This document shows, piece after piece, positions 5,918 through 47,848 of a DNA stretch of 47,848 bases; position 1 is the first letter of the stretch; each line of letters starts with the position of its first letter. Location of the stretch: NCBI GenBank assembly GCA_008632985.1, contig QPGO01000132.1, positions 186,001 through 233,848 on the forward strand, given 5' to 3'. The stretch comes from Psammoneis japonica. Its lineage: Eukaryota. The notes below the pieces were generated by a model. The model was not told the DNA's origin. It worked only from the letters and a program-made list of their open reading frames with translations, and did not search any database. The translations under genes and the position numbers were made by a program.

Positions 5918-5959
5918 ACACACCTCTGATGTCCTCCAAACCTTGAAACCACTGGCATG

Positions 5960-11400: not shown

Positions 11401-11644
11401 TGCCTCAGAGGGCACGTGAGATTCTGGACTTGTGAAGTCCCAGAAAGCCACCGCGCTGCAGTGCCTTGTGTGCAAGGTGAGGATCCATCCACACACTGTG
11501 CAAGCACCAGCCAGAAATGCAGCGACAAGAAGCTTTGCGGCCCATGCAATCTTCATGGTTGGTTTGACATTGTTGTGATGGAAACACATTGCACATTTGT
11601 CATGGGCTAAAGCAGCCATGGTTGGCGCACAGACTTGCGGGGGG
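8431..11644. mobile_element. Non-autonomous foldback-like element with ~260-bp TIRs and long internal inverted arms
   Basis: 8431..~8690 is the reverse complement of ~11385..11644 (CCCCCCGCAAGTCTG...CCATGAAGATTGC...GGCTTTCTGGGACTTCACAAGTCCA). Internal arms at ~9240..9935 and ~9985..10950. Confidence 0.75.
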
Positions 11645-12779: not shown

Positions 12780-14567
12780 GAACCAAAGGCAAAAAATGCA
12801 GCATTGGACAAGAAAAGAAGTGTGCAAGAGTTGCTGAGAGTTCACCATGGGACACCCCACATGGAAAAAAAACACAGCAGCAAAACCTTCAGTTGGCAGT
12901 GCAAGCATTCTGCGCAGCGCACAAAAGTGCAAGGAACCAGAATCAAAACGAAGTGTGGCAGAGGAAACATCCAAGAAGATGTCGAAGATCATCATTGACA
13001 AAGAAAGTGACAGCAAAAAGCAACAGCATTTGCCCGCAGAAATCGAAGCAATGCAGAAAAAGGCAATGATCTGTCTGAACAAGTTTGAGGTGAATCTCAA
13101 AGATCCAGAAGGAGATTTGATCAAGAGCAAGGTCACTGTCGAATTGGCAGAGAACAGCACAAATGAGGAGGCCAAATTGCAACATTTCAATGAGGCAAGC
13201 ATTTCCAGACATGTGTCGAATGTCCTGCATGATGTGCTGCAATGCCTGCAGATGTCCTTGACCACCAAAATTGGCCAATGAATCTCTCCTTTTTCCATGC
13301 GACCAGACATTGTTGTCATTCACTGGAAATGTAGAATCATTCTGGTGATTGAAGTCAAGAATCCCGGCAAGAATGGCAAGGCAGTTGTTTGTAACAGCAT
13401 TGCTGCCAGCCAAGCCTGCAACCATGCCATGGGACTGCAACAGATGGGCACAGATCACCCGTTTGTCTGTCTCTCCACCTGTGATTGCACGCAAATTGGA
13501 ACCCTGAAAGCTTCCTTTTTTGACATTTTTGAACGGGCAACTGAGCTTCTTGCGCGTTGACCGATTGCAAAGGCTTTTGACTCAACAATCAGCTCAAACA
13601 AACCAAAAGTCAGCCCCACGAAGCAGGGAAAACTGACAGAAGTTCCTTTTGATTACTCCCGCACCAACGTTTGTGACATGGATGCAGACGAGACCAACAG
13701 GGACGAATCCGTGACATCAGAGAAATGCATCGTCATTTTTCAGAAATCTTTGAGTGCTCAAACATGTTCCAAGCCCTCCATTTTGCAGCTGCTTGTGGCA
13801 TTGTGGCAGTTGAACATTCAACAAACAACAGAAAGGAAAATCTCATGCCCTCAGAAGGTGAACGAGTCACCACACGATCCATTGCTGTTGTTCAGGAAAA
13901 CTCGCTTTGCTGGCAGAAGCTTGAATGCAGAGCAACCTGCATGTTGAAGTGCACATGGCAAACCAATCTGAAGGTGCACTTGCATTGTGTTTTGGGACAA
14001 GGCCACTCTGGAAAAGTTTGCCTTGGTTCTGATTCTGCAGGTTGAATGTTTGCCGTCAAGCTGTGTCTTTTTGATGCAGCAATCTTGGAGTCCTTTCGAG
14101 CCGTTGACAATGAAAAAACGAAAATGACTCAGAAGCAAAGAGTGGCAAGAGTCCGCAACAGCAAAGCTGAAAAGTGGAAGAATTTTTACCCCTCATGCAA
14201 GGAAGCGATCTGTTGGGGAGAACTTTTTGGCGTGCCATGCTTGGCCATGCCTTGCGTTGCTTCAGTCCCCATGAATCGCTGCAAGGCCCTTCTTCCAAAG
14301 GTTGAGAAGGAGCTGAAAAGACTTTCAAACAAAGGCTTTGCTTGTGCCGACCGCGATCTCCACTGGCATCACATCGGACCACAAAAGGACCGTGATGATG
14401 GAGAAGACAAAATCATGTTGGTTGATTTGGAATCAACAAAACCAAGGCAAAAAGACAACAAAGCCCATGCCAATCACGTCTGCCTTCTTGAGTCAGCCAT
14501 CAAGCAGTTGAGAGAACGCATGGAAAAAGAGTGCATCAGCACTCCTCAGGAGCTGATTCATGCTTGA
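12780..14567 (+). pseudogene. Decayed PD-(D/E)xK nuclease plus protein-kinase-like gene (Crinkler/CRN-type REase-kinase architecture)
   Basis: RPDIVVI...ILVIEVKNPG (nuclease motif), then LGQGHSGKV, FAVKL, DRDLHWHHIG and IMLVDLES (kinase-like subdomains). Several stops and frameshifts. Confidence 0.65.
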
Positions 14568-14899
14568 TTTGGAATGGTTTTTGTTTGACCGCTTTGACGC
14601 TGACTCCACTGCTTGTCACATCCTCAAGCATTGAAACCTCTGGCCGCTGTCCCACAATGCTTCTGTCAGCCTTGCGAGCAGTGTTGCCTGACATTGGAGG
14701 AAGCAACCTGGCATTTCAGACCTGCAAAGGTTCCTTTGTCTTGCTCCTCATTTCACTTTTCCATTCAAATGGTGGGACAGATGTTGTCCACATTCTGACA
14801 TTGACCACTGCATTCCTCATTGTCGCGTTGCCCTGCAGCTGTAGTTTGGCACAATTGATTCACTCGTCAGACCAATTTCTGCAGTTTTGGACCTTGTTG

Positions 14900-17800
14900 C
14901 TGAACGGCCAACCAGTGCAGCAATGAATGGTGGCAAAGACACTTTAGACTCACATCATGAACTCTCAATTGTGCCATCAGTGTGCCTGACAGAAGCAATG
15001 ATGATTGCAGCAGAGTCTAAATTGTTTAGATGTGCTAGAGCCTGTGCTTGGAGGTGGTCACAGAGCTCTTGGAATCTTCAATGGTTCAATGAAATGCATG
15101 CCCCATTTCACCTGCAAATGTGTGTTGAGTTCCCGCAGTTTGGACCAAGACTTCTCATTCCGGGAAATGGGGAACTTAACACCCAACATTTGGTGCACTC
15201 CCATGTTAAAAACAAGCCCAAAAGATGACAATTCCCCACATTCAGGCATGGACGTGAAGTCGTTGGCACACGGCAGCACCCCTTGTGCTGCCACTGCCAT
15301 CTTGGCTGAAGTCCAGAGAGTCTGTGGGGGGCACTGTCAGGAGTGACAAGTGTGCCTGCTTTGTTCATTCCTCCAGCAGCGCTCAAAATTCTGTGCAGAA
15401 CCCCAAGCAAATTGATGTGATGTTGGTGTTGGCAATCCTGATCAAAATGAGAGGCACAGGTGCCCCACTGGTGCAGCCATCCAGGAAGGCTGTCAATGCT
15501 GGGCTGTCCTCCATCAACGTTGAAATGATGAGAAAGATGCAATGTCCAGAAGGTTCAAAACAGACAAACATCCTGGTGCCAATTTTGCACCATTGGAAGC
15601 GCCATGGGATTGGCGGCAGAACTAAAAAGTTGACTGTGTTCTGTGTCAGCATGGATGAAAGAATGAGTGCAAGTGGTTGCCGCAGGTGGGTCCATGCCAC
15701 CCTGCACACATCAAATTCCAGGAACTCGACAAGGTGGGGGCTTGGAAACAAATTTTGTTCTCTCAGAGCCAGCCCAGTGCTCTCTTGGCACCATCATCAC
15801 CAATGTGATGACACCTTGCCTCCACAAATGTTGGGTCATTTCCAACTGCTTGCTTGCCAATGTTCAACACATGTGGCTGCAGGCTCTGACAAAGCTGTGC
15901 AACCCAAACTCAAGTGCAACACCATGGCTGCTTCTTGGAGCTGGAGCTCATTTTTGATGCAGACTGGGAGCTCTCTCCTCTGGTTCCTTGTGCTGTCTGT
16001 GTGTTGGATGCCACATGTGGCTGCATGGAGACAACAATGATGCAGTGCCGGCAAATGCAGAAGGAGCTGAATGCAAATGTTCAACAATGTGTGGGGACAC
16101 TGAGGTCTGCGTGGAACAGGCACTGTGACAAAGCTTGTGGATGACTGTCAAACACCAGCCATGTGACCCATGAGGTGCTGACTGGTCATTTGCACAAGCT
16201 GAAGCCAACCAGAGAGAAACAACAAGGCAGTTGAACCTTGTTGCTGTTTTGATTGCAACACAGCTGTTGCAGTTGAAACAATTAATTTGTTTTTGCAACA
16301 AGAGGTCATGTCTCTGTGCCACTGTGGCTGCACCCAACCCTGTCAACTGCAAGACCCCATCTGAGTCCATGCCTGATTCCCTCACTGGAGACTGCCAAAG
16401 TTCATCTGAAACCATTTTCAGTGATGGGGTGCTCATTGCTGGCAATGAGGTCCTGAAGGCGATTGTCTGCTCACCACACACTGTGCCACCACACTGGAGC
16501 TCACCACGCCATGGCATGATTGCTCCTGCACACATGGCTCCGACGTCAATCTGGGCAACCAGGTGACAGTTGTCATGTGGCCAGCCAACCCTTTCATGAG
16601 GACTCAGCCCACAACATGCCAACCAAGGGGATGTCATCCAACTGGTGGGAGAGCACTGCAGCCACTTTTTGATCTGGCATCTTCTTTGCCAGTTTGTCAG
16701 CTTGTTTCTTGGTTTGATTTTTTCTTTGTCTTTCTCTTCACCTGTGTTGCTTCTGTCTTTGTTGTTGGTCAGTTTCTCTTTGTCACCACCAGATGACTTC
16801 CTTTTGGCAGCAGCCTGCTTCTTGGAGTTTTGTCCCTCTTTCTCCAGCTGGCTTGAATGCCCCAGGGATCATCTTCCAAAATCTGTTTCATCTTTTTGTT
16901 TTGACAAGAAGCAGTGGCGCCTGTGTCTGGGTTGTGTGCCACATCCTGATGCACTGCAATCCCATGCAATGTGAGCCAGCATGCAGACTTGACTCCCAGC
17001 AGGTGCGGGCACTCAGCAACAAGGTTGTTCATCACCTGCATCACTGGAGCACAGCTCTTCTTTGGAAAAGCAATGACAAGGATGGAGGTGCTGCTCCATT
17101 TCATGTTGATGTGATGGATCAATGGGATCAGCGCAGCCCCAATTTGCCCTCAGGATCTTGGATTCTTTTTTGCATGACAAGTTGATGGTGATTGATCTTT
17201 TGACAATTTGAGTGGGGCAGTTTGGCAATGAAGCTGCGTTCCATCTTGCTGATGATGTGCTTGCAGAAGAAGTGTTGGCACTGTCACAGTTCATTTGTGA
17301 GTGTTGTCCAGAGCACACCGCATGGCACGAGAGGAATGGCAAAGTGCATGTCTCATCTGCAGTCCCATGATTGTCTTCCTGGCACCCACCCTCCATGGCT
17401 TTTCCAATGCAATCTTGGCTTGAAAGGCATGGCAAGCCTTGACAACAATGCGAAGTGCCTCCGGGTTCTTCTTGGGGTCGTCCCAATTGCAGGTTGGATG
17501 TTTTTCAATTGGCTCTGCAGTGGCTTTCCCCATTGGAGGCCAAGGCAATTGGGCTCACCACCTTGACCCAGAGCTTTCTTGCAGATCTGGCAGTGAAGAG
17601 TCTCTTCATTCACAGTCTTGGTGCTCAACGCAAAGCCAGCCAATGCATCCTGAGTTCACAGACTGGCAGGGCACTGGCTTTCTTTAGATTGTGAGCTTGC
17701 CTCCCTTCACATCCTCAAATCTTCCCATTGGTTCAGTGCCATGTTCTCTTTTGTTGGCATGCTTGCAGTTTCTTCCTGCAACAAGGACTCAGATCTGACA

Positions 17801-18750
17801 GCATGTCATGTGCTTTTGGTTTTGGTTTGGGCATGGGTTCAGGCAGTTGACTCCCAGGAAGATGCTCAGAGTTTCCCGCTCCTGTGCTTTGCCCTCAGGA
17901 ATGTCCTCTGGAGCAAGCCACATGCCAAAGGTTTCTTGGAGCTCTGGATCCCATGTGCCGATGGCGACATGTTTGCTGAGAACTTTGTTGGATGACTTCC
18001 AGGCCTTGTTGGGTTAACTTGGTCACCACACAGAGGGGGTCTTCAGCTTTGGAGGCACTGCAATGAATGCACTGCATTGGATTTCAGAGTGGGGAAGGCA
18101 ACTCAGCCTTTTTCTGTTTCTTTGTCTTTCTCCTCTGCATCTTCCACCTCCTTGTCTTTTCTGCCTCCTCTCCCACTTCTTCTTCATCCTCCAACTGCAA
18201 GCAACAATGCTTGCTTGTGAGCTGCTCTGCAGGAGTGTTTTCTTGCTCTTGTTGAGGTTCTGAGTGCTCACTTCCTTTTCCTTGGAGTGGTGTTTCTTCT
18301 GTCTCTTCCATGACAACTGAGGTGTCGACATGATTTGCGCTGGTCAAGGAGTGTAAAGGGTCATCCACTTCCTCTGACTTTCCCTCTTTTTCTGTTGCAT
18401 CAGACTCTTGAACATTGTTTGCACAGTTGGCTGTTGTGTCTTTGGCAAAACCTTCACCCTGGACTTGCTCTTCTTCACTTTCCAGGTTGTCTTTCTCTGT
18501 GACCTGTGACACCTGTCTCATTTTCTGGCTCCACTTCATCAGCTTTCCCTCTGCTTGTTGTGCAGTGGTCGTGTGGGTTTGGGGAGTGACAAGTGTTTCC
18601 GTGGTGTTGTTGCCTGTTCAACAACTTTGTTCTTGTCGTCCTTGTCGTGTTGCTCCTTGAGATTTTTCCTTTGCCATTTTGTCCTTTTCCTTTTATCTTG
18701 TTGCACCCTTTGTGGGTTTTTCTTGCCGCCGGAGTTGTTGCATTTTTTTC
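14900..18750 (-). other. Long decayed coding remnant (Glu/Lys-rich N-terminal part), probably a retro- or DNA-transposon relic; family not assigned
   Basis: Chain of broken minus-strand ORFs (18539..18937, 18084..18539, 17291..17548) in sequence depleted of TpA and CpG. No firm catalytic motif recognised. Confidence 0.3.
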
Positions 18751-19423: not shown

Positions 19424-20413
19424 TTATGGAGGAGTGTAAAATGAATCATAGTACCCATTCCTCGTGAATCCCCCATCAACGGAAATGACTTGTCCAGTCA
19501 CATAGCCTGCAATGGGCAAACACAAGAATGCCACCAATCCTGACACCTCTCTTGGCTCACCCACTCGTCCCAGGGGCGTCCTTTCAACGACAGATCTAAG
19601 AGAATGGGAGTGGTCGAGCAGCCATGAAGCGTATAAAGCAACGGCAAGGTTAGCCATCAAAACAAGAGACATAAAACATTTTGGCGCCAAGCTTATTTCG
19701 TACCGTTTGTAGGATTCATCCTTGAGCACTTGCTGTGCCAAAGCGGTGTTAATATACCAAGGAGTAACACAGTTCACACGAATTCCATCAGGCCCCCATT
19801 CGCATGCCCAATTCCCAGTTATCTGATTCATGGCTGCCTTTGTAGATGCGTAAGGTGTCCCCGACTTGATACATGTGACCCCTGCGACCGACCCAATATT
19901 GACAACACTACTGGTTGATCCATCGTTGCGTTTCAACAAGCCGTGACATGCCGTTGTTAGGTGAAACATGCTCTGAAAGTTGGTCTTCCAGACGAACTCA
20001 AGATCTTCTTCCGTGTATTCGACGGACGGCTTACGGATGTTGGTACCCACATTGTTGACGAGTATATCTAATCGTTGGTCCTTGCCAAGAAACTTCTTGA
20101 TTTCAGCAACCAGTGTCGCTCGGCCTTGTTTTGTTGAAACATCCGCCACCACGCCTACTACATCCAATCCCTCCTTGGTCCATTGTTGAACACAGCTGTT
20201 CAAGTCATCTTGATTTCGTCCACACGTCAAGACACGACACTGAAGCGTGGATGCCAATTCCGTCACGACGGCATGGCCAATCCCCTTTGTGCCTCCAGTC
20301 ACAACCGCTGTCGATTTCGGTGGCAGTGCCCAACAAGCTATTTCTTCTCCCTTGACGTTGAGAATCATCATCATCGTTGTCAGGATGACGAAAATTAGCT
20401 GCAAAATCGTCAT
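19424..20413 (-). CDS. Tropinone-reductase-like short-chain dehydrogenase/reductase; one 108-nt intron (19596..19703)
   Basis: [36 protein letters not shown] and GQVISVDGG motifs. The in-frame GTACGA...CTTAG intron explains the insertion between YKR and SVVERTP. Hydrophobic N-terminus. Normal TpA content. Confidence 0.92.
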
Positions 20414-27429: not shown

Positions 27430-28283
27430 CAATCCCTGCAAAATTGCGACCCCGACTGAACCTTGTCCGGCTTCGGCAATGGAACGTCTTCAACTTTTGG
27501 CTCCACATGGTGAATCCCACTCGTGCTCTTTACATGCTCTGGGTCCTCCGCTCCGTAGCCGTCATTGGCTTCGACCCTCTCGTTCTCTCCCAAACAGTGC
27601 TTGACAGAGTGACGGAAGATTTCGAGATCGGGCCAATCTCCACAAGGAGACGGCCGTTGATCCACACAATGTCGCCGGTCAAAATGCACACACAAACTTC
27701 ATGCCGGAGGCCAGCCTTTTTGAACTTGAAAGAACAAAATGCCTTTGGGTTTTTCCCTTGGCTGGTTGCTTGACAATCGGCACAATCGACTGTCACCAAG
27801 CAGTCGAGGCCCTTGTCTCCAACGAGACGATTCGACCACACAATCTGTGAAACCCGCAGAGGAAAAGGTTAGACTGAGCATCATTCACATGACACAATCA
27901 GGCTGAAAACTTGCCACTTCGAACTCCAAACACGAAACTCGGTCAACAAAGAACCAACTCCACTTGCAAAACGTCTGTTCGTCAACTCCGCCGCATTTGC
28001 AAGCAAGGTCTTCTTCGGTTTTGCATGTTTTCACCAAAAGCAATGCCCAGAGTAGATGAACTGGCTTTGCATGTTTCTCATCTTTATCTGGCTCTGATTC
28101 TGGGTTGGGAATGCCAATCCTCAGCCCAATCCAGACGTCGACACAGACAGCGGGCTCAACAGCAAAGTGAGACATCCACCGTCGGTCGAACACCACTTCG
28201 CTCCCAGTCCACGGGTGGCGGTTCATGATTTCACTGCCAAGTTCAATGAATGTGTCGTGGTTGGGACCCAGCTTCTTCTTCAT
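27430..28283 (-). pseudogene. PIF/Harbinger-type transposase, inactivated; intron 27845..27914
   Basis: HLLWALLLVK, VDEQTFCKW, LVTVDCADC, FKFKKAGLRHEVCVCILTGDIVWING, CGDWPDLEIFRH and ERVEANDGY resemble the DDE_Tnp_4 layout. Frameshift after WING; the C-terminus appears truncated. Confidence 0.8.
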
Positions 28284-28644
28284 GGGGGGTCCTGCCGTGG
28301 CATCACCCTGTGGGCATCGACGACATTGTGGGGTGTCGTTTTCTCCGCAAAACTGGGCCCACCAAGATGGATGCAACACCAATGATTCTTGTGCAGTCTC
28401 AAACATGTGTTTTTTGGCAAGCCGTTAAAAGTCATGTGTTGATGCAGTGCGGTTGTGCGACGACACAGGCAAATGCTTTCGAACTGCTTCGCACAGCACC
28501 GTGATGCACTGCGCTCAACAGCTGTGATTTGAGTTGGAGTTCTTGATCCATCAAGGTTGTGTGATAAAATGCAATGTTTTAGCTTGCACACATGTGAAAT
28601 GTAATTTTTGTATCTCTGTGGATGTGCAATTTTTCAGAATCTGG

Positions 28645-28750
28645 AATTTTGACCGGACTTTTCGATTTTGACCGAAAAAAGAAAGTCCGGTCAAAATTCA
28701 AATTTTCGGTCAAAATGAGCCGAAAAAAAAGAGGCATTTTCGGCTCACTT
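28645..28750. repeat. Cluster of short inverted and direct repeats (TTTTGACCG / CGGTCAAAA), probable TE subterminal binding sites
   Basis: TTTTGACCGGACTTT...AAAGTCCGGTCAAAA, TTTTGACCGAAAA...TTTTCGGTCAAAA, and TGAGCCGAAAA...TTTTCGGCTCA. Confidence 0.6.
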
Positions 28751-29329
28751 CAGTGGCCTGCTGTCTGCAACCAAAGCCCGTTTGACAGCAGGCCGCTGCT
28801 TGTTCAAGGAGCACCACACAACTGCCACTCAGAATCATCCTTCTTCATGTCATCTGTGGATTAAATCTAAAGACATACAAGGTTGCACAGACATGAAAAA
28901 ACTGACCTGAAAATGGTTTTCAGCTCACTTTAGCCTCATTCACATTTTGTGTGATTGCATCAGACGGCAGCACTGAGGTGCTTTCTGATTGCTTGTTTGC
29001 ACAACTCTTTGACAGTGTGTCATTGTGTCATCCAACGGCCTTTCGCATGAAGACAGGAAGGATTGAAGTGACCGGAAAATGAAAAAGACCCATTTGAAAT
29101 TTTGGGCCGAATTCAATTTTTCCGGTCGGATTAATCGGATGTCCGTTGCTTGACCAGAATTCTCTCAACAGACCGGAAATTTGGCGTTGACATCCAATGA
29201 TCACATTCAGTTTTACAGCTGTTGTTGTCAACGTCACTGTAAAAGCTTGCACGCAATTTTGTCGTGTGTCTCTGCGTCACCCACACAACGAAAACGTGGC
29301 ATGGTGCACGCAGGCAGCCCAAACGAAGG

Positions 29330-30713
29330 CTCTCGATGGCTTTTGAAGAACAAAGCCAAGGCTCCACACTCGCTCAGGAGCCAAGACACTGACGCATCCA
29401 CCTGCACTTTGGAGCTTGATCATCATTGTTTGCTTGCTCCTGTCAATGGGACCGCGTTGGGGAACAAAGCAATGTCACGAGTGCACAAAGCACTTTAACT
29501 TGTTCCATGCCAGCAAAGCCAAAGAGGGCTGGGACCCGAAGAACACCGAGGAGGCGCGCATCAAGTCCAAGGTCGCGACGTCGGAAATCATCCATCCGTT
29601 TCTGCATCGCAACCTTGGTGGTCACAAAGATCACAAATCGTCTGACAAGGCTCTCGGTGGCTACAAAAGAGCCTCCAGTGAGCATTTTGTTGAGTTGGTC
29701 ATTGACGGAACCCATCAAAGTGCGTGAATTGTCGCTTCACCCTGTTGGTTGTTGTTCACGCTCACATTCGCCGCGACTCACGATGATCTTTTTTTTCCTT
29801 GACAGAAGCATGACCAGCAGATGAGGAGAAAACAGGCGCACGGGCAACTCAAGAAACAGCAGGACAAGGGGTTGCACGGCTGCCACAAGCCGACGACAGC
29901 GACTGCGAGTTCGAGGAGCAAGAAGACGAATCTGAGGAGGAGGCAGATGATGAAGGCAACGGCGGCAAGCAACAAGAACCCACAAGCACTGGCAATGTGA
30001 AGAGCCCCAGTGCTGTGCCAAGCAAGAAGTCCAAGATGAAGAGGACTCCCAAGAGCTCCTCAAAAAAGAAGTCGGGTGCAGAAGACTCTCGTCTTGCAAG
30101 AGAAATGCAGGAGAAGCTGAATGTCTCCAGCCACGTGCGCTGCATCCGAGACGACATTTTGCCACACTCCCTTCATGTCTGGACAGAGCCGGACTCGGGG
30201 ATCAACTGCGTCACGATCGAAATCAAGCTCCTTAGCACGATGGTGGCGCAGGACTGCAAGCCGAGCATTGCACGCGATGGCACAGAGGCAACTGTGGAGT
30301 GCAAGTTCCCAAATGGCGGGGACCTGATGGACCCAGCACACCTTTTGTTGACTCACAAGGATCACATTGATTTTTCAGATCAGCACCCGAAGCATTCAGC
30401 TAAGCAGAAAGCAATGAGGGCCTTGAAAGAGTTGAGTTTTGACAAAGAAGAAGACAGGAAGCTCCATGTTGAGCTTCCTTTCCCTTGCGATTTGAGTGGA
30501 TTCTATGATCCACTCAAGGATGAGGATAACCAGCATCCAGCAGTCAACCTGTGTCCGATTCATCCGCGGGAGAGTGTCCCTGAAGGTGCACCGAAAGCAT
30601 CTGTGAAGAAACCAGAGCTGACCCTGGAGAGCTTGGAAAAACCTGGGCGCACGCAAGAGGACGTGTCGGCCAGTTTCTTCCAGGCAGTGGCACACAATGT
30701 AGTTGCAATCTAG
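29330..30713 (+). pseudogene. Decayed gene divergent from the Harbinger transposase, possibly the element's second ORF; probable intron ~29720..29805
   Basis: Protein-like ORFs 29416..29727 and 29997..30713 with an acidic/Lys-rich linker. TpA-poor with CpG retained. Confidence 0.4.
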
Positions 30714-31525
30714 ATTGCATTGTTTGGGGTGCTTTCATCTAGCTCTAATTTTTCCATCGGATGTTTTTCAAATCTAGCTCTTGCTTGTGCAAGGTGCTTG
30801 CTTGCGAGCAGCATGTGCTGGGCCAACCAATGGGGTCTGGCACTCCTGAATGAAATCAGAATAAGAACATCAGCCTGGCGAGACGTCTGGACAAACTCCT
30901 TTCACATCGTAATTGACCTGCCGTTCACGGCAGTGGTCTTCTTCCCGTGTGGATCCGCAGCTGACCTGGATGCGCAGACGACTGATCTGCGCCAAATCCC
31001 GTTTCGCGTTTGCAGAACAGGCACCCAAACTTTGCACATCAGAACATGACTTTCCCGCAGCTTCAACCCGGAAAGCCAAAACTGCCACAAAAAAAAGAAT
31101 AAAAAAAAAACAGAAAGCGTCGTGGGAAAGTGAGAACCCGGAAAGCCACGCACAGACAGTCGCGGCTGTCGCCGCTTTTCTCGTTTGTCCACTGCAGCGA
31201 CATTCAGCAGCTAGACTGGGGCCAAATCAATCCAGGAGTGGAGAGGGCTTTACCAGCACAGGCTTGCACTCTCCCAAGAAAACCCAGGCTGGACGGCAAG
31301 GGCCAGAGGGCGGGAGAGGTGGGAGCATCAAAAGCTGTCTGCTTTGACTTGCTGTTGTTGTCTTGAAAGAATGAGTGAGCTTCATTGGATGGGCAGCTCA
31401 TGCGTTGCTTGTGCATTCAATGGAATTGGGAATCTTGCTTGGTGCATTGCTTGAGGCCAGCAGCTGTCACTGCTTTTCTTGTTTGTCCACTGCAGCGAAG
31501 TTCAGTGGCTGGACGCCACCAGGAC

Positions 31526-32243
31526 CAAGCCAATCCAGGAGCAGAGAGGGCTTCACTGGCGCAGGCTTGCACTCTCCCAAGAAAACCCAGGCTGGATGGC
31601 AAGGGCCTCCAGCTTCTCCAAAGGAGGCCCAAGTGAATTTTGGGTGGGAGAGGTGTGACCGGCTGGCGGGCTGTGGCGCTTGGGGCATGCAGCCAGTCGC
31701 AGGATGGCATGGATTGCTCACACTGATCCGGACCTGGGCGGCATGCGAACTTTTCCTTTGGGCAGTCATGGTGTTGTTTGGCTTCATGCTGTGTTGGCAG
31801 TGGTGCCCATTTGCCTTGCCGTGCTGCAGGACCTGTGTTGGGATGAGTGGGAGGTGGGGTGTTGGCAGCACCACAGCAGACAACAAGCCAATCCAGGAGT
31901 GGAGAGGGCTTCACTGGCGCAGGCTTGCACTCTCCCAAGAAAACCCAGGCTGGATGGCAAGGGCCTCTCCAGCTTCTCCAAAGGAGGCCCAAGTGAATTT
32001 TGGGTGGGACAGGTGTGACCGGCTGGCATGCTGTGGCGCTTGGGGCATGCAGCCAGTCGCAGGATGGCATGGATTGCTCACACTGATCCGGACCTGGGCG
32101 GCATGCGAACTTTTCCTTTGGGCAGTCATGGCGTTGTTTGGCTTCATGCTGTGTTGGCAGTGGTGCCCATTTGCCTTGCCGTGCTGCAGGACCTGTGTTG
32201 GGATGAGTGGGAGGTGGGGTGTTGGCAGCAACACAGCAGACAA
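31526..32243. repeat. Near-perfect ~360-bp tandem duplication, with an older partial copy at ~31170..31305
   Basis: 31526..31883 and 31884..32243 differ at only a handful of positions. Confidence 0.95.
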
Positions 32244-32764
32244 AATGGTGCTTTCTTGCGTGCCAGACTCATTTTTCACTGCTGGTTGTTTGCTCGCAGC
32301 ACGTTCTTTTGGCTTGCTTGAGCCCATGCACCAAGAGAACAACAGCTCACCCCCCTGGCTCTTTTTGTGTGAGGTGGGTTTTGGACAAAAAGCAGTTGAC
32401 TGCAGAGTGCAGTGTGCAGTGTGCGCAGCCCATGAGCTGCGGACATTCTTTGGGGCACAGGCTTTGTGCATGTCCTTTGGGCATGGTGCAAGACTGGCCA
32501 GACAGAAAGGCACACCCATGTGCTCGCAAGCTCCCAAAACATTTGTTGAGAAAAAGCACATTTTGTTGCAAGCCATTGTTTCCATTGAGATGTTGCACCA
32601 GCCTGTGTTTGTTGGGAAAAATGAATCAACAAACAACACATGCACGGCTGAAAAGTGCTCAACGAGAGCTTTTGATCAGTGTCTGCACCTTCAAATTGAC
32701 CATGCGAGCCATTTCGAGGTTTGGGTGTGTGGTGATGTTGCCCATGTTTGTTGTGTGTGCAATT

Positions 32765-33022
32765 GTCAGGCAATCCATTCAACAACTTTTGACATTTTTT
32801 TCTTCTGCACCACACTCAAAAGTCTTAAGAATGGCACAGGGCAGGTGGATCATCCAAAACTTTGAGCACTGACAGGGGGACACATGTGCCACAAACTCAG
32901 TTTTGTTTGCTTTGTGTTGAAGACAAATGTGTCCATCAACCAGAGTGCAAACTGCAGAGCTTGCATGCAGAATTCTGTGGGGCAAATGTCACAAAAAGTC
33001 CCGCCCAGGGCTGGAACGAATC
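32765..33022 (+). mobile_element. Decayed copy of the MITE family at 44199 and 44881
   Basis: Aligns to 44330..44548 (AACTTTTGACATTTTTT...GTCTTAAGAAT.GCACAGGGCAGGTG...GTGCCACAAACT...GAATTCT) and ends in CTGGAACGAATC, like the family terminus CTGGAACCCGTC. Confidence 0.75.
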
Positions 33023-33029
33023 AGGAAGG

Positions 33030-36000
33030 CATTTTTGTTCTGGCAGTGACTTGGGCTGATCACTGCATCAGCTGCCATTTCTGACCCCAGGCCAAAGGAT
33101 GAGCCAGGCCTTCCAAGCTCTTTTTCCATGTTTGGCTTTTTGAACATGACTGAGACAGCCCAGCCAACATGCTTGTTTTCTCCAGAGGTGCAGCCCCTCA
33201 TCTGCTCTGTCTGTGCTTCCACACATTGGAAGCACAAAAGGCTTCACATGTCTGCAGCCAATGAACTCTTGCACCACAAAGTGCTGCAGCACAGCAACCA
33301 ATCCCTGCTGAGCAGGAGCACCCTCTTTGATTTCCTGCATTCATCACAGGACAGCTCTCCCAGCACAACAACAGCCACACAGACTCTGTGAGCACCACAA
33401 GACAAATCCTCCATTTGGGCCAGTGCCTGTGTGCAAGCATGAGTGTGGAAATGAGCACAATCATGACAAGCTTGTGCTGACATGCAATTTCAAAGAGGGG
33501 GCAGAGAGGTTGGAGAATGCTGCACAGTTTGGCAAATTTTGACTTGTTGCTTTCAACATTTTTTCAAAGAGGAAAAAGCTCACTCTCTCACTTGTCAGAT
33601 CTGAGAGGAGATGGCAGCACTCACCACACCATGTCATCACATTTCACCATGCTGAAAAAGTGTCTGAGCCAGAAGATGATGATCATCATGGCCTGCCAAA
33701 CTTGTCTGCTGCCATGCTTTTCTGCACGGGGAGCAAGCACTTGCTCTGCCGCATTGTTCTTGATGACAATGGAGCCAACCAAACCATCTTGGTGATCTGT
33801 CAACAAAAATGGTCCAACATGGTCTCTGAATTTAGAGAATGAAGTTGTTCCTCATGATGACAACTTGCCCTCACCAGAGCACACCTTGAGGCGGAATGCT
33901 CCAAATGCAATCATTTTGGGACAACAAGAAAACTGTGACATGGTGCCACAACTGCACAGCAGCACATTTGCAAACATCAGAAAGGTTTGTTCCTTGTGCA
34001 CACCAGTGTCGTGAGTGGACTAAAAAGATGCCACCAAGGGAAAAATTGCTCAATGTGTGAGCCAAAAAAAGGTGATTGACCTTCAGTGTGGAAGCAGCAA
34101 AATGCAGTGGCTGGTTGCCACACAATGCTGCTGGAGTGGGGAGCACAGTGAGTCAGCATTGGGGGAAAAGACACAATGATTGGACACATGTTTTCTTGAA
34201 TGTTGTTGTGGACTGCAAAGAAAAACTGCCAGAACAGCTGTTAAAAATTCATGTCTCTGGTTGTTTGTGAACAAGCAAAAAAGTCCTGTCTGCAATGAAA
34301 GCCAGTTTGACTTCATCTTTTGCACAGTGTGCTCCATGTGTTCTTTGGCTTGAACTCAAAGTCTTTCCCAAATGTGGCCAACTGCAACTGAGACAAAAGA
34401 TCCATGCCACTGACATCACATCCACACAGTGACAAGGATTTGGAGACAGCCAGGTGAGCCTCTGTCATGGAAAAGTCAGCCATCTGGACAATCGAGTTCT
34501 TGGGGATGACATCACAGGCCTTTTTCCAAGCAGAGTGCACGTGGCTTTTTTGCAAATAAAAAGTGCTTGGTGATGTGGTGTCACAGAGAAAAACTGTGTT
34601 GACAATGGGGCACTTAGGTCCTCTTTCACTGCAATGGCTGCAGCGATGTGTGACCACATTTGTCATGACACGTTTGTTGACACCACACAGATTTCCAAAG
34701 ATGGGAGAGCTGGGAGGGACTTTGGCAGGTGACAAGCACCTCATGTCCAATGCAGCACTGATTGTGCTGTGGAGAGTTTTCAAAGAGACGTCCAAGAGAA
34801 GAATGTCATGCTGGTTGGGAGGGAGGCAATCAGGGTTGTCGTGAAGCACTGATTCTTTGCTTGACTTGGGGCTGGTGGTTGACATTTGGTTTGGAGGAAG
34901 CTCAAGCACAGCTGACTTCTCTGGAGTTTTGAGTTTCTGGGCTTCCATCATTGGCATTGGGGACATTGATGCCTGACCAGTTGTGTGTTGCTGTGTTGTT
35001 CCACAGTCAAGATTGCATTTGGCAGCAATGTGAAGGCAGTTGTCACAGCAGACGTGTGGTCCCAACTCTTGCCATGTTGTTGCAGTTGTGTTGCAATGCT
35101 TTGTGGACTAATTTCACAGTGCAAGGTGGGCATTCCATTGTCATTTGTCAAGCTCACAACTGGCCAGAGGACAGACCATCCCACTGGCCTTTGTCAGTTG
35201 GTTGTGTGCACATCCAGTGTGCACGTGCATGTGCAAAACTCTCTGTCACTCCAGCAGGCGGGGTGCCACACAGCCTCATCTTGCCAGCTGGGGCCTCTTG
35301 CAGGATCCAGCCATGCTGATCTGTTTGTTCCTGTTTCAACAAAGCTGGAAAAGTGAGAAGAGGAAAAGTTGACCACCTCAATCCAAGTGTCCCTTGGAAG
35401 GCATGGGTTGCAACCAACAACCCTTCAGGAACCTTGGCTGGTTCTTTTGAAGCCGCCAACTTCAAACAATTTTGAGCCTCCCCCAAAGGTTCCATGCATG
35501 AGCTCTTGCAAGGGTTGCCTTCATCCAAACTTTGGCATGACAAGGAGGCATCATTTTCCATTGGTCACTCCAGCACTCAAAAAGTCGAGCATGTCATTGG
35601 CAGTGTGCAGATTGTTGATTCTCTTTGAGGACTGGCACTCAGAAAAACAGATTGGCTTAAATTGTCCATCCTGACATTTTTTGTCCAACAACAAAGTCAG
35701 GAAAAACAACAAAGTCAGGAGAAGAAGAGCAAAAAAAGTTGAAAAATCTGGCCAGACTTCACAGAGCCCACAAATGAGACACGCTCAGCACACCCACTGA
35801 CGAACCCTGTTTGGTTCCTGGCTGATCTCCCACACAAAATGACAAGCTGTCATCTGACATGACAACCAAGAGGCATCTGCAAAGCTGCCAAGACTGCCGT
35901 GTCATGAGCTGGGGGGGCTTGTTCATTGGCTCAAGCCTCCTTGCCCACATGTGCATGTTGCTGGCATGAATGACACCACCTTGAGTGTTGCGCAGCAGCC

Positions 36001-36800
36001 TTGAAACCTGCCGGGAGACCTGTCCTTTGGAGGCATCCCAACAATGAACCACATCATCACCAAAGAGAAGGTGGAGGGATTTGTGGCAATCTCTGAGGGA
36101 GAGTCCTCCCCTTGGTCCTCACCGCACCCATCTGACAAAGAACAAATGTCCCAAAGTGCACTCCAGCCACCAGATCAAGCTGATTGTCACATGGAACCCA
36201 CCTGCAACACACAACCACCTGACTTGTGACAAGCTCAAGAAGCACCACTTTCAGCGGTGCTTTTGAGCCCTCTGAGCAGCTGGCATCTTCACTCAACCAG
36301 TGCCTCACAAACCCAGGAGGCAGCAGACAAAACAGATCTCAACGTTGCAGCAGTTGGACAGCTTCGCTGGATTTCAACAAAAGTGTGTGTGCACACAGCA
36401 CTTTGATCTGATGGACTTCTCCGTCCATGGCTGGTTTTTGGGTGTGTGCATCTCTTTTTCAACATGTGACCTGACCAGGCCAAGGAAGATGCAGCAGCCT
36501 TTCTAAACTTGACATGATGGATCAAGGTGGGATCCCAGAGACTGCAGCGAACAGCTTCGGCCATGTCTGTGTCAGCCACCTGCCAGGGCAGCTCGAGGAT
36601 GCAGCAGCTTTGGGGGCACCGCCGTGCACCACCACCACCCTGCCGCTCCTCCCTCCCAGTGGGGCCTTCAGAGTGCCAGTCAAGCTGTGTCACCTCATCC
36701 TTTGTGGATCAGCTTGCCTGACATGCGTTGAAACTCAACAAATCAATTGCTTTGCCACCATAAAATCATCCACTGAACTGCCAGCCCTGCGCGGTCTGCC
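33030..36800 (-). other. Heavily decayed sequence with coding remnants; origin not recognised
   Basis: Almost no TpA and few CpG. Fragments such as 34313..35065 lack diagnostic motifs. Confidence 0.25.
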
Positions 36801-39609: not shown

Positions 39610-40960
39610 CGCACACGCAGACCATCCAACTCCTCACTGCTGTAATCACCGCCCGCCTCTCTTGCTTCCTGGTCCAACTGCCGCTCTTTCCCCACCGCCT
39701 CTGTTCTACGGTGTCTCCCGACACCTGCCCCAACTCTCTTCCAACTGGACTCATCCTTGCCTGCCACCATCTCTGGCCATTTCCTCCGAGGCCCAGCCCC
39801 ACATACCTGCCCATGCCACCACAACAAAAACAAACAACCCTCCTCCACCTCTCCCAACAATTGGGGGGCTCCAACCGGCTCTCCCTCCCCTGCTCTCACC
39901 TCTTGCCAGCCTTTGCCTCTGCTTCCTCTCCTGCCCCCACCTCTGCAACTGCCTCTCCTGCTCCCAAGAACTCTCACCCTTTTTTTCTCATTCACAAATT
40001 TTGCCCCCACCCCGCTGTTCCTCCAGACCTCTGACGTTCGCCTTGCCCCCTGTGACCACTCTTGCCCCCATCTCTGTGGTGATCATGCACTCATGTGCCA
40101 CACAAATCACAAAGAACCTTTTTCCAATCACATCCATGACACCATCTGCTTCATGATCATTGAGGCTCGAGACCCTTGGTTCTCTTGCTGGCCTGCGCCG
40201 ATCCTCTTGCCACCACCACATCTTTTTCGAACACTCCAGTCTCATTTCTGACCCCATCCCTCAACAGCAGGGCCCAAGTTGACCCTCAGTTTTGTTGAAA
40301 TGCACTCTTTTTTGTGGCAAAACATTGAAAAATGACAGCAGGTGCGCCAACTCAGTTCTTTTCAGGCACCGGGGTTTCTCTGCACTTCCTCCTCCTCTGC
40401 CCCTTTTGTGACAAGCTGCATTTTTGGTTGGCACAGGTGGCAGTCCATTTGCAGCCAGCATCCCCTCTGGACACTTTGTGCACACTCACAGCTGACCAAA
40501 CAGCACTGTGTCTGTGATCTGTGAGGAGACATGTGCGCTGATCACGCTCAGATGTCGAGGAGCAGTGCCCTGATGTTGCCACGCATCTCTTTCAGATTGT
40601 CTCCTTGTAGACTGGAGAACAGCTTTTGCACTGTCTCTCTCATCAACATTTCTCTCACTTGCAGGAATCACCAAAAACAAAAACAAAAAGACTGAGCCAC
40701 ACACCAGACTGAGTGGTGCTGCTGTCTCGCCCCAAATTTGTGCACAAAACTGTGCTTTGCCTAAAAGCCCACATGCTTTGACAGTGCAAGCACAAATGGA
40801 ATGTCAAGAACATTTTGTTGTGTCCTCAATTGTTTGGTCTGCCATCTTCTTTTTCAGCAGGAAAACAGTTGCATGGCTCAAGAGAGTGGACTCCTGCAAG
40901 CTGCAAGTGTGTGAGAAATCCCTGTCACCACACCTGCAGACAACACATTTGGCACTGGTT
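39610..40960. other. TpA-depleted, pyrimidine-skewed decayed insertion between intact genes
   Basis: Abrupt loss of TpA relative to the AT-rich flank at 39400..39600. No family motif seen. Confidence 0.45.
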
Positions 40961-41183
40961 TAACCTTGTTGTCATTGACCCTCCTGTTTAGAAAGCTGGC
41001 GTGTGGGGTTGATTTTGGTCTTGAGTTGTGTTTGTTTTTGGCGAATGATCAAATCGTGGAAACAAAAACCCGGATTCGTACCACGACTGAAACGATCATT
41101 CGAACGCGTCGAATCATCACGAAGCACGTAAGACACGGGACCAACTATCGAAAGGAAAACCAGAAGAAACAAAAAAAGCAACC

Positions 41184-43369: not shown

Positions 43370-43935
43370 ATGGCGGCGATTTGCATTGGAGGCATTTGCG
43401 TTCCTTACAGTGCCGTGCTCCCAACATTGGCACTGGCACTGAAATGGATCACCACAAAACTGGCCGTGTTGGGAATTTGCCCGATTCTGTCGTGGAATGG
43501 TTTGGGTTGCAACAACAGCAAACTGCCACCAAGAGCTGCTGTCAAGAAAATGCCTCCCGGAGCATCAACACAACTGGAGCTCCATCTGCAAGAACAATCG
43601 AATCGACAGAGGAATGGAGCGGCTTGATTCAAGATGACAAGATGGAAGTCGTCAAGTTCACCGCATCCTGGTGCAAACCCTGCAAAGAAATTGCTCCCTG
43701 CTTTTCTCAGCTCTCCTCTGGAGACTTTGACGCGACCTTTTGTCAAGTCGATGTCGATGATCTAGACGAGGCAGTGGCTCAGCACAAGGTGGCCATGATG
43801 CCCACCTTTTGTGTCATCAAGGGAAAGCAAGAATTGGCCGCGAGTCGAGGAGCCAATCAAGCTGATTTAGAACACATGGTGACGCAACATGTTCCAAGAC
43901 GAGCCCAGCAATTCATCAAAAAGCATGTGCAGTAG
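43370..43935 (+). pseudogene. Hypermutated, frameshifted copy of the thioredoxin at 47405
   Basis: Colinear with 47405..47848. WCKPC active site. 1-nt deletion near 43475. Only 2 TpA remain where the intact copy has 14. Confidence 0.92.
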
Positions 43936-44198
43936 ATTCAAGTTTGACAAGAAGCACAGAGATTTAAATGGACTGCTTGCAGTCTTCTCCTCCTTTCTAG
44001 AGTCCATGCGAAAACGATGCTTCGTAATTGAGGATTGCAAATCCAGCGAAAAGACACACGCCAAACCCGACGATGTCCCTTTGGCATCACGAAGTCGTGC
44101 ACCGACGGCAATGGCACCGCCGCTTGCGGACAGAGAAACTGACTCTCCAAACCTGTCACTCGATGTCTCCCCCGTCAAGGATGTGCCCACCTGTTTCC

Positions 44199-44548
44199 GA
44201 CGCGTTCCAGGTCTAGGTGGGACCTCGCACCACTGAACTGTGACATCGACAGTTTTTTGAATCTCGTCGTATGTCGCGCACGTAGAATTCTACGTGATTT
44301 TTTGATGTTTTGTGTCATTTTACGGTGCACTTGTTGAGCGATCCGTCCAAAAACTTTTGACATTTTTTGTTACAGCGCGATTCTATGATGTCTTAAGAAT
44401 CGCACAGGGCAGGTGCATTTGCAAAAACGTCAAGTGGCAAGAGGCACAATTGTGCCACAAACTTGGCCGTTCATTTGATGTTGAAGATGAACACATCCAT
44501 CAATTAAATTCTCGCACTGCGGAGCTCGCACGTAGAATTCTACGGGCC
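44199..44548 (+). mobile_element. MITE copy 1; right end lost at an assembly N (44549)
   Basis: The first ~95 bp match the reverse complement of 45190..45287. The sequence before the N matches the subterminal part of the other end of copy 2. Confidence 0.8.
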
Positions 44549-44880
44549 NTTGGCGTCGTGCCAGTGGCCTCCCGCCACTGCGACACATCCGTTTGCACTC
44601 TCAAAGACACGGACCAGCCAAACTCATTGTCCACTTGCAGAGTGGAAAGGGTTTGGCCTCGTTGTTCCCATGACTCAGAAGAGCTGTCGCATTCACACAC
44701 AAAGACTCGTCCAATGGTCGGAAGGTCCAAAAACTCGCCGGGTGCACCCATGGCCATGACCAATCCACTGTCATCCAGCAACACCGAGTGTCCAAACCAA
44801 CCACCGGTGATTGGACCATCAACAGCATCACCCATGGGTTCCCATGTGGACATTTCTGAGCTGTGCTGAAACACAGAAAC

Positions 44881-45287
44881 GACGGGTTCCAGTCCCAGGT
44901 GGGACTCCAGTCTGGGACTCCGTGTGACATTGGGCCCGCAGAATTCTGCGTGCGAGCTCCGCAGCAAATTTGTGCTGCAATGAAAACATGAATGATCGCC
45001 AACAGAAAAAGAGGCAATTTTACGAACGTTCTCCTCCTTCATGCTTGGAGTGCATCATTGACAGTTTGCCCGGGTGTGTTCTTCAGACATTAAAGAATGT
45101 GCCCAGCATTTTCATTCTCACAAATGTTGAAAATAGAAAGTCTTTGGCTTCGCAAAACAGGGAGTGTGAAACAATTTCGTAGAATTTCACACGTAGAAAT
45201 GTGCGTGCGCGACATGCGACGCGATCCAAAAAACTGTTGATGTCACAGTGCAGCAGTGCGAGGTCCCACCTAGAGCTGGAACGCGTC
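44881..45287 (-). mobile_element. MITE copy 2 (407 bp), imperfect ~26-bp TIRs, 4-bp TSD AAAC
   Basis: GACGGGTTCCAGTCCCAGGTGGGAC ... GTCCCACCTAGAGCTGGAACGCGTC, flanked by AAAC on both sides. Removing it restores the host frame G-Q-V-S-V-F. Confidence 0.88.
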
Positions 45288-47404
45288 AAACCTGACCTCC
45301 ACTGATCACACCGGAATCACTCTGACGTGCTCCAATTGCAAGCACTCCACCAGAGCTGCTCAGCGACACAGACCAGCCAAAGGAATCGCTCAAAGCTTGT
45401 CCCAACAGTGTTTGACCAAGCTGTTGCCACGAGCCGTCCTTGCATTGAAATGCTCGAACCGATCCCGAGTCATCACCGTTGCTCATGTCTTCCAACACAG
45501 GATCCCACAGCGACAATGTTTCCTTCTCTGTTCAGCGACACTGAAATGCCAGAGCATGCAAATGCTTGAGAACCATCAGCGTTGCTTCCGAGTTGGATCC
45601 ACCAATCCATGGAGAAACTGCATTGAAGCACTTGGACGTGACCCGCATTGGATCCGCCGCTGTTGTCGTTTTCATCTGCTCCAATGGCAACGACAGTGCC
45701 ATTTCCATTCAGCGCCATGGATTCGCCAAAGTCGTCACCCGCGGCGTCTCCCAGCAAATCTTGTCCCATGGGCATCCACAAGAGTGATGATTCGTCCGCA
45801 AGTCGAAACACAGACACGCGCCCGTGTTTGGCGGAGGTTTGTGTGGCTCCCACAGCCATGACGCGGGCGTCGTCTCGTGACAGCACCGCGGGGAGACCAA
45901 AAATGTCGGGCGCACTGTTGCCATGCAAGACTTGTCCCACCGAGATCCACGTGCCATTTTGGCAATGTTACAAAGGCGGTGTGAGATGGAGTGGGAGACA
46001 GAGTCGGTGGTCTTGCAGTTGGACTTGTCGTGGGACTCGTGGGATTTTTTGGCGATGGCTCTGGCGAGTTTCCGCCGCTGCCGCTGTTGTTTCTCATGGA
46101 CAGTGCGACAGCTGCTGCTGCCAGTGCGGCAAGAGCAACAACTAGAAACCCAATCACCGATGCAATCAGCCAAATCTGACGACTCTTTGTCACTCTCTCT
46201 GCATCTTCCGACTCATCGTTGTTGTTGACCACTTGAGCAACCTCTGCGTGAGCAATCGGAGCTGACTGACGAAATTCGTCTAGCTCCGATCGCAAATGAT
46301 CGATTTCTTGTTGCATGCTTCCCACGTCTCGTGGTGACTGTGCGACTTCAGCCTTGACCACCACAGTGCCACTCGTGTCAGGTGGCTTGACGGGAGGAAG
46401 GTGCTGCTCTTGGACAATTGTTGTGTTGTCCAACTCGGCAAAGACCGCAATGCTGTCATGGTCACCAGCACGTGGAGTCACGCCTTGTGGATTGACTGCA
46501 TGTGCCCCGGCTGCGGTTGGCATGGCAATTGGTTCTGCCATGACATTTCCGATTCCTTCTTCCTCGTCATGTTGTTGAAAACGACGATGACCACGACGCT
46601 TCTCATGCATTTCGGGAGCAAAATTTTCACAGGCGGCACGTGACACTGCCGATTGAGCAGACGAAATCATCACAGGAGAGAACAAAGCCATGGCAGAACG
46701 TACGGGAGGACTCAAGGAGACTTCATCCGACATTTCTTCAGATCCAGGTCGCCGGGAAGACCTTGTGCTCATGCCGAGCATTCCAAACTGACCGACACCG
46801 CCAATGTTTCGTCGACTGGCAGTTCTTGCCACTGCATTGCGGTGACCAATGGCAGCATCTCTTGTTTCATATAATCTCTCTTCACTCTGCAAGATGCGCT
46901 CGGCGGCTGCATCGATGTTCCGTGTTTGTAGCTCATGTTGACCAGAGCAAATCGCCTCCACTGAACGGTCCACATTTCCTCCATGTTGAGCAAGGATCGA
47001 CTCTAATTCAGCCACTGGCATGTCCTCAAACAACTCCACGAGTTGCATCAGTTCATGGCTTGACGATGACGACATGATGCTGGAAGTCTCTCTTTGAATG
47101 AATGAGGGTACGACGACGGCTGATGGCTTCATCTACCGTATCCGCGAACGCCTCGGTCGTGGATGCGAAATTTCGAAACTGAAAAACAGCCAAAAAATGA
47201 GAGTGCACCTTTTGCTTTGCTCGGACACCTTTTTCTATTATCATTCAGACTTTGTGAGACACACAAGCAAATTTTTACTTATGGAGCACAGAAACTGACA
47301 CGTCACGTACATTGAACGAAACTAAACTAACGACACCACACAAAATCGCGTGCAGTCAAATATTAATCAGGAGGTTCGCTTCTTTTCTTTTCGTCTCTCT
47401 GGCC

Positions 47405-47848
47405 ATGGCGGCGTGTTGTATTGGTGGCGTTTGCATCCCTTACAGTGCCATACTCCCATTATTGGCACTGGCATTGAAATGGCTCGCCACCAAATTGGCC
47501 GTGCTGGGAGTTTTACCCGATTCTGTAGTGGAACGGTTTGGATTACAACAACAACAAACTACCACCAAGAGCTGCTGTCAAGAAAATGCCTCCCGGAGTA
47601 TCAACACGACTGGAGCTCCGTCTGTAAGAACAATTGAATCGACAGAGGAATGGAACGACTTGATTCAAGATGAAAACAAAGTGATTGTCGTCAAGTTTAC
47701 AGCATCCTGGTGCAAACCCTGCAAAGAAATTGCTCCCTACTTTTCTCAGCTCTCCTCTGGAGACTTTGACGCGACCTTTTGTCAGGTTGATGTCGATGAT
47801 CTAGACGAGGTAGCGGCGCAACACAAGGTGGCCATGATGCCCACCTTT
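47405..47848 (+). CDS. Thioredoxin with hydrophobic N-terminal extension (runs off the window end)
   Basis: Open frame MAACCIGGVCIPYSAILPLLALALKWL...VVKFTASWCKPCKEIAPYF...VDVDDL...VAMMPT. Normal TpA content. Confidence 0.9.
   Translation, partial: MAACCIGGVCIPYSAILPLLALALKWLATKLAVLGVLPDSVVERFGLQQQQTTTKSCCQENASRSINTTGAPSVRTIESTEEWNDLIQDENKVIVVKFTASWCKPCKEIAPYFSQLSSGDFDATFCQVDVDDLDEVAAQHKVAMMPTF

Follow-up and report, generated by a model that had tools for sequence, protein, structure and literature searches.

A thioredoxin gene pair as a small instance of a blockwise TpA purge in a 48-kb window of the Psammoneis japonica genome

Two thioredoxin genes lie near the right-hand end of a 47,848-base stretch of the Psammoneis japonica genome (contig QPGO01000132.1, positions 186,001 to 233,848, read on the forward strand and referred to here as the window), and they raise the question of how one of them, copy A, came to have TG or CA at nearly every site where the other, copy B, has TpA, with the number of CpG dinucleotides near-unchanged. 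The account that we propose, and consider quite probable as a whole, is that the two are tandem duplicates of a diatom-type thioredoxin gene and that copy A lies in a block hit by a region- and context-specific purge of TpA. The pair is a small and clean instance of a purge that dominates the window, and it fits none of the hypermutation systems against which it was tested. The coordinates of the genes and blocks are collected in Table 1.

The shared region of the pair (43370-43809 in copy A and 47405-47848 in copy B) was aligned with MAFFT starting at both ATG codons, giving 444 columns, of which 440 are aligned and four contain indels, and 46 substitutions, comprising 35 transitions and 11 transversions. 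Six of the 14 TpA dinucleotides in copy B are CA in copy A, five are TG, one is TC, and two (one TTAC and one CTAG) are kept, which is exactly the tally of 11 TG or CA, one TC and two kept that the first-pass annotation had reached by hand. Copy A has just these two TpA, both common to copy B, an asymmetry of 12:0 (binomial p 4.9e-4). Substitution has affected 12 of 14 TpA dinucleotides but 74 of the 423 dinucleotides of other kinds (Fisher p 1.1e-7), so that the substitution rate at TpA stands far above background divergence, and transitions per site come to 0.39 at TpA, 0.066 at the remaining A/T and 0.028 at the remaining G/C positions. CpG shows symmetric turnover, with 19 in copy B (seven altered in A) and 18 in copy A (six altered in B), matching the near-constant number of about 19 and 18 given previously; the exclusion of methyl-CpG decay that had been drawn from it holds as well, with a CpG ratio of 0.77 and a TpA ratio of 0.09 in the block containing copy A. 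Six of the 12 TpA changes are synonymous and six are non-synonymous, and protein selection on copy B is therefore not the reason that it keeps the synonymous ones.

Both copies are readily recognized as thioredoxins. Copy B matches Pfam PF00085 with an E value of 3.3e-18 (66 bits) and the copy A frame at 43357-43935 with an E value of 2.2e-19 (69.8 bits), against a curated cut-off of 23.5 bits; both translations contain the W-C-x-x-C active site as WCKPC, and W102, C103, P105 and C106 are invariant across 25 homologues. The translation of copy B begins with a conserved, cysteine-rich and hydrophobic N-terminus (MAACCIGGVCIPYSAILP...) followed by the WCKPC thioredoxin domain, and 84 homologues share this N-terminus, the best of them 65% identical and those that are named belonging to diatoms or their relatives (Nitzschia, Phaeodactylum, Triceratium, Cyclotella and Tetraparma). 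A near-invariant motif, C-I-G-G-V-C-x-P-Y, followed by a hydrophobic stretch, is present at 47405-47520 and in the 39 homologues P0002-P0040, and the family is possibly a diatom-typical thioredoxin that carries a lipid or a membrane anchor. We explain copies A and B most readily by the tandem duplication of a gene for such a membrane-anchored thioredoxin. Contigs of three public sequencing runs were compared to the window between 30000 and 47848; RNA-like contigs of one of these, X2, cover copy B at 47566-47848, and none was placed on copy A, which has no bearing on its expression.

The direction of change was determined at the protein level by aligning copies A and B to the same 39 diatom-type homologues. 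Of the 17 codons with non-synonymous differences, 12 (including one tie, at codon 44) have the copy B residue as the one most frequent in the outgroups, and none has that of copy A. Among the six non-synonymous TpA sites, copy B is ancestral at four (Ile16, Leu19, Val74 and Val136) and copy A at none; the homologues thus carry the copy B residues at these codons and not those created by TG or CA. Metagenome loci were rejected as a DNA outgroup, as only L001-L006 of 80 match over the full length and these, at 31-43% protein identity, are too distant; the TpA ratios of L001-L005 are ordinary (0.52-0.79). Locus L015, with a TpA ratio of 0.10, was also rejected, since its coding sequence is unrelated and specifies two thioredoxin domains. 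This locus (1-1358), which derives from a metagenome contig of a different organism, has TpA at 0.10 and CpG at 0.48 over apparently functional coding sequence, and the organism shows strong TpA avoidance.

The first-pass annotation had inferred the same direction from the premise that the frameshifted copy is the one that lost TA; the direction stands on the outgroup proteins, but the frameshift argument does not. The sole contig of run X1 over the three-T run in copy A has an extra T behind 43475 at a depth of 37/37, with no other differences listed nearby, and because the T run is complete there, the frameshift cannot set the direction of change. With the T restored, copy A is an open 188-codon frame, whose length differs from that of copy B only by an in-frame deletion of three bases. 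The window carries other small indel differences from the X1 contigs, and the copy A frameshift is either an assembly error or one allele, such that the frame may be intact. As a candidate pseudogene, copy A has a single lesion, this one-base deletion, which is absent from the single X1 contig. From its sequence copy A appears to be under relaxed constraint, because all of the polarized protein changes fall on it, though it is not obviously long dead.

A second duplicated gene shows the same substitutions over a longer alignment. Comparison of the window with itself shows that the segment at 4756-5917 is 78% identical to 19131-20246, which includes most of an intact tropinone-reductase-like SDR gene, and the two differ by 209 substitutions over 1086 aligned bases. 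The 52 TpA dinucleotides of the normal SDR copy appear in its decayed duplicate as CA at 27, TG at 20, CG at two, TC at one and GA at one, with one kept (p 1.7e-24), corresponding to 47 of 52 changed to CA or TG; CpG is altered at 39 of 48 sites, 30 of them to CA or TG. This pair was polarized with 59 outgroup proteins. Of 21 codons called as non-synonymous with a TpA to TG or CA change three are intronic, and at all of the remaining 18 the residue of the normal copy is present in the outgroups, as the commonest residue at 15 and a frequent minority at three, while the decayed residue is among the listed outgroup residues just once (Cys, in 2 of 59). The codon for the catalytic Tyr188 is among those changed, and encodes Cys in the decayed copy. 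More than half of the 52 TpA (27) fall within the intron or the 3' flank, and the normal SDR copy keeps all of these while its decayed duplicate has 24 of them converted; protein selection therefore cannot account for the retention of TpA in normal blocks. The decayed copy retains both the intron and the 3' flank and therefore arose by duplication of DNA, not from a retrocopied transcript. The process acts on DNA in place.

TpA and CpG ratios computed in 1-kb and 250-base bins across the window reveal that it alternates between two states, separated by borders 250-500 bases wide. The TpA ratio is below 0.15 in 108 of 191 bins, and the purge spans more than half of the window. Normal blocks have a TpA ratio of 0.54, CpG of 0.94 and TG/CA of 1.22, and purged blocks have TpA at 0.05-0.09 and TG/CA at 1.47-1.78, with CpG at 0.23 in some and 0.77 in others. 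The loss of TpA is independent of the loss of CpG: it is complete at normal CpG at 2750-4750, 27600-31250 and 45250-47000, and 250-base bins from 45251 to 46750 have TpA ratios of at most 0.09 with CpG at 0.73-1.04. The TpA ratios of copy A (0.08) and copy B (0.47) agree with those of their own blocks, the one purged with normal CpG and the other normal. The listed pieces of run X2 are all in normal blocks (36890-39353, 41918-43099 and 47566-47848), and one X2 contig has an 81-base gap bounded by CT..AC within a minus-strand zf-CW gene, for which reason the X2 contigs are read as RNA-like. The neighbouring expressed blocks are untouched by the purge, their intron and flanking TpA included.

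The process has a strong context preference. The density of TpA in purged relative to normal blocks is 0.017 when the dinucleotide is preceded by a purine and followed by a pyrimidine (R-TA-Y), 0.078 in mixed contexts and 0.355 for Y-TA-R (p 1.3e-17), so that R-TA-Y is preferred and Y-TA-R is largely spared. R-TA-Y is the commonest TpA class in normal blocks, at 156 of 537 sites, and GTAC, present 90 times in normal blocks, is found not at all in the CpG-poor and twice in the CpG-normal purged blocks. The motifs TTAA, TTAG/CTAA and CTAG account for 88 of the 138 NTAN counts left in the CpG-poor purged blocks. In the two gene pairs together G-TA has become G-CA 17 times and G-TG three times, and when all changes are counted as A-to-G events, in our own tally, the 3' neighbour is C at 26, T at 14, A at 11 and G at seven. 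A runs test for clustering of TG versus CA outcomes found none (23 runs versus 24.0 expected), and thus each site and strand was mutated independently, with either strand mutated at random, site by site.

Repeats lying wholly within purged blocks differ mainly by adjacent CA/TG double changes, with 13 in 251 aligned bases of one pair and four, five and nine in three others, as expected if the copies each resolved an ancestral TA or CG after duplication. A tandem duplication of about 360 bases at 31526-32243, inside a purged block, is 97.5% identical with only seven differences, and was therefore either duplicated after the purge or homogenized since. Among the 40 listed of 64 differences between the window and X1 in purged blocks there are five of TA versus TG or CA, eight of CG versus TG or CA, and four CA/TG swaps (at 33396/7, 46109/10, 46119/20 and 46125/6); these types would fit a recent or continuing process, with alleles, strain differences and errors being indistinguishable. 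Differences from X1 in copy B at 47599, 47608 and 47620 were rejected as variants, as the letters are those of copy A and are read as a misplaced copy A contig.

Other explanations can be considered for these patterns. A genome-wide bias from TpA to TG or CA, in which expressed genes keep their TpA by purifying selection and a neutral copy A decays, would agree with the finding of no recognizable live gene in the purged blocks (of 94 frames scanned in the window, those within purged blocks gave only a transposase and marginal matches) and with the placement of all polarized protein changes on copy A. We nonetheless consider it unlikely, in that copy B retains six TpA that could be lost without any change of residue, the normal SDR copy still has its 27 intronic and flanking TpA, the block borders fall within 250-500 bases, and R-TA-Y, although the commonest context in normal blocks, is purged to 1.7% elsewhere. 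It is quite improbable that the changes are artefacts of sequencing or assembly, with a modified base at TpA misread or errors in a long-read consensus, and with the true DNA still TA. A strand-dependent misreading would give all TG on one strand and all CA on the other, not the unclustered 27 CA and 20 TG that are observed; a contig of the X1 k-mer assembly (32986-39367) has the same mixture across a purged-to-normal border, with nine other letters and one gap in 6.4 kb; and the decayed copies also show about 13% ordinary divergence together with indels. Even so, the small indel differences from X1, the copy A 'frameshift' among them, suggest imperfect polishing, and some of the differences between the window and X1 are CA/TG swaps.

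A-to-I hyper-editing of RNA by an ADAR-like activity, followed by reverse transcription and insertion of a retrocopy, has two attractions: RNA adenosine deaminases favour A-to-G changes next to a 5' T, and copies A and B are homologous from about three bases ahead of the ATG, with only patchy similarity further upstream. No intron is seen in the aligned part of the thioredoxin pair. However, A-to-G and T-to-C changes are mixed and unclustered within one copy, the decayed SDR copy has its intron and 3' flank, and the purge extends over blocks of 1-16 kb of mostly single-copy DNA, making this route very improbable. The reverse direction, in which copy B gained TpA from CpA or TpG as in fungal repeat-induced point mutation (RIP), would use the same dinucleotide pairs as RIP, read backwards, but is scarcely credible: it is refuted by the outgroup proteins, whose residues agree with copy B and with the normal SDR copy, and the TpA ratio of copy B is ordinary for normal blocks, whereas it is that of copy A which is anomalous.

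For the region-specific purge that we prefer, copy B is conserved and lies in ordinary, expressed sequence and copy A in a kilobase-scale purged block, where the process converts 5'-TA-3' to TG or CA, through an A:T to G:C transition at one of the two positions, to near completion. The cause would be an enzyme-like activity aimed at silent chromatin, perhaps a mutator that deaminates adenines preceded by T and followed by a pyrimidine, or else a DNA mark on the T or A of TpA that raises its transition rate, like 5-methylcytosine at CpG. That this represents an undescribed mirror image of RIP, acting on silent blocks at R-TA-Y with A:T to G:C changes on either strand and brought about by a natural DNA adenine deaminase or by some mutagenic mark on T or A at TpA, is a serious but tentative possibility. 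In the part of the literature available to us we found no report of TpA to TG or CA hypermutation in diatoms or elsewhere, the related work there concerning fungal RIP, RNA editing, 5-hydroxymethyluracil in dinoflagellates, and N6-methyladenine in other algae.

Several points weigh against this interpretation. Both the enzyme and the DNA modification are hypothetical candidates, the pattern is seen in one 48-kb window, and the link between normal blocks and expression comes from four RNA-like contigs of one run. The window may have been assembled from run X1, for which no sequencing platform is recorded, and this leaves a small doubt as to an artefact. The TpA codons 53 and 112 of the thioredoxin pair are ambiguous, codon 53 lying in a variable region and Tyr and Cys at codon 112 both falling outside the five commonest residues, and the six synonymous thioredoxin TpA sites, along with all of the non-coding sites, are polarized only by analogy. 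Finally, the pairwise ratio of non-synonymous to synonymous substitution rates (dN/dS) for the thioredoxin pair is 0.22, and copy A was therefore not unconstrained throughout its history.

Table 1. Genes, blocks and other features of the 47,848-base window.
Feature	Position	Strand	Remarks
Thioredoxin copy A, full length	43370..43935	+	Stop TAG at 43933-43935; WCKPC retained; TpA ratio 0.08-0.12
Three-T run placing copy A out of frame	43476..43478	+	Copy B and the run X1 contig have four T
Thioredoxin copy B, first 148 codons	47405..47848	+	Continues past the window end; TpA ratio 0.47
Tropinone-reductase-like SDR gene, intact	19427..20413	-	Normal block; Pfam adh_short E 9e-45; homologues about 65% identity
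SDR gene intron	19598-19705		108 bases, GT..AG
Decayed SDR duplicate	4756..5917	-	Purged block; intron retained; Tyr188 codon changed to Cys
Purged block	2750..18750		TpA mostly 0-0.1; CpG normal at 2750-4750, depleted beyond
Purged block	27500..36750		X1 contig 32986-39367 crosses the right border into normal sequence
Purged block, short	39750..41000		Poor in TpA and CpG
TpA-poor, CpG-normal block with copy A	43500..47000		Strongest at 45250-47000
Normal blocks	~18750-27500, 36750-39750, 41000-43500, 47000 onward

Between the two thioredoxin copies, at 43685-45469, is a segment with a summed word depth in run X1 of 2e4-5.7e4, compared to about 64 for single-copy sequence. It contains inverted repeats of 98 bases (44199-44296 and 45190-45287) that are 89% alike and a single N at 44549, and a related piece is present at 32757-33002. 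The segment resembles a DNA transposon or miniature inverted-repeat transposable element (MITE) of high copy number, inserted between copies A and B. FG-GAP repeat matches flank this repeated element, at 43870-44289 on the minus strand (E 1e-6) and at 45476-45967, also on the minus strand (E 2.5e-5), and the two may be remnants of one gene that was split by its insertion.

The gene content of the blocks was examined by scanning 94 stop-to-stop frames, from a total of 106 with at least 120 residues, against Pfam; eight of the remaining 12 had been scanned before in near-identical form, and the other four, short frames that overlap the dicer-like and zf-CW genes, were left out. The frames in purged blocks gave only a DDE_3 transposase and marginal matches. 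The transposase, of the Tc1/mariner type, is a remnant at 1064-1564 on the plus strand (E 1.7e-12) in TpA-poor sequence. The dicer-like gene (22628-26679, minus strand) is in a normal block, with matches to PAZ and RNase III and, upstream of them, a marginal one to a dsRNA-binding domain. Purged blocks are crowded with long overlapping open frames on both strands, and the window (1-47848) has 53 open reading frames of at least 150 amino acids. Such frames arise in purged blocks because TAA and TAG vanished along with TpA, and their length is thus no evidence for genes there. One of them, a minus-strand frame of 465 codons at 45738-47132, has a marginal CUE match, and its three hits among 1.84 billion proteins were set aside as too weak for use. 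The best of these hits is a likeness of the last 45 residues, at the C-terminus, to a Kunitz-type unit that occurs as a repeat, His standing at the position of the repeat's Tyr, as expected from a change of TAY to CAY.

If the interpretation is correct, the removal of TpA by A:T to G:C changes with a context preference and sharp borders would point to an undescribed enzyme or DNA mark, either of which would add a new kind of epigenetic mark or genome defence to those of eukaryotes. Should the cause be a natural adenine deaminase that acts on DNA, it would be directly relevant to base editing. There are also practical consequences for annotation. Purged blocks without TAA or TAG produce spurious long frames on both strands that mislead gene finders, and the conversion of Tyr codons to Cys or His hides decayed genes from homology searches. 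Paralogue pairs offer a clean internal calibration of the process.

To our knowledge, the known forms of block-wise hypermutation in eukaryotes, namely RIP, methyl-CpG decay and APOBEC, are all C to T. In fungal RIP, C-to-T changes at CpA create an excess of TpA and a deficit of CpA and TpG, and both copies of a duplication are mutated. The process described here resembles RIP in its near-saturating, dinucleotide-specific transitions across kilobase blocks, in the four dinucleotides involved, and in the disabling of a duplicated gene, here the SDR copy. It differs in running in the opposite direction, with TpA destroyed and CpA and TpG made: the mutated copies have TpA ratios of 0.05-0.12 and TG/CA of 1.47-1.78, and the outgroups indicate that TpA is ancestral. 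Moreover, one copy of each pair is spared, copy B keeping 14 TpA and the normal SDR copy 52 (27 of them non-coding), and much of the purged DNA is single-copy as judged by X1 depth. Methyl-CpG decay is similar in that a self-complementary pyrimidine-purine step is lost to TG or CA on a random strand, in sharp-bordered blocks beside untouched gene blocks, and some of the purged blocks here do have CpG at 0.23. The target, however, is TpA, and its loss is complete where CpG is normal; in the thioredoxin pair the 11 gains of TG or CA align to TpA, and CpG decay is an additional presence in other purged blocks.

Very-short-patch repair in enterobacteria depletes CTAG, and polymerase-eta errs at WA motifs in antibody hypermutation; in both cases a TA-containing motif gives way to G:C, through repair in the one and an error-prone polymerase in the other. 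Neither is known to match the 98% removal of R-TA-Y seen here with other A/T positions near background, and CTAG, the motif lost to very-short-patch repair, is among the better survivors. RNA adenosine deaminases, TadA/ADAT and the early adenine base editors share with this process the A-to-G change with a 5' T, TadA/ADAT acting at the U33-A34 site of tRNA and the early base editors preferring T-A-C. The RNA deaminases and those of the TadA/ADAT type act on RNA, however, whereas here both DNA strands and an intron-bearing duplicate are changed, and in place of the single strand and missing intron of an edited-RNA retrocopy there are 27 CA and 20 TG intermixed, with the SDR intron retained.

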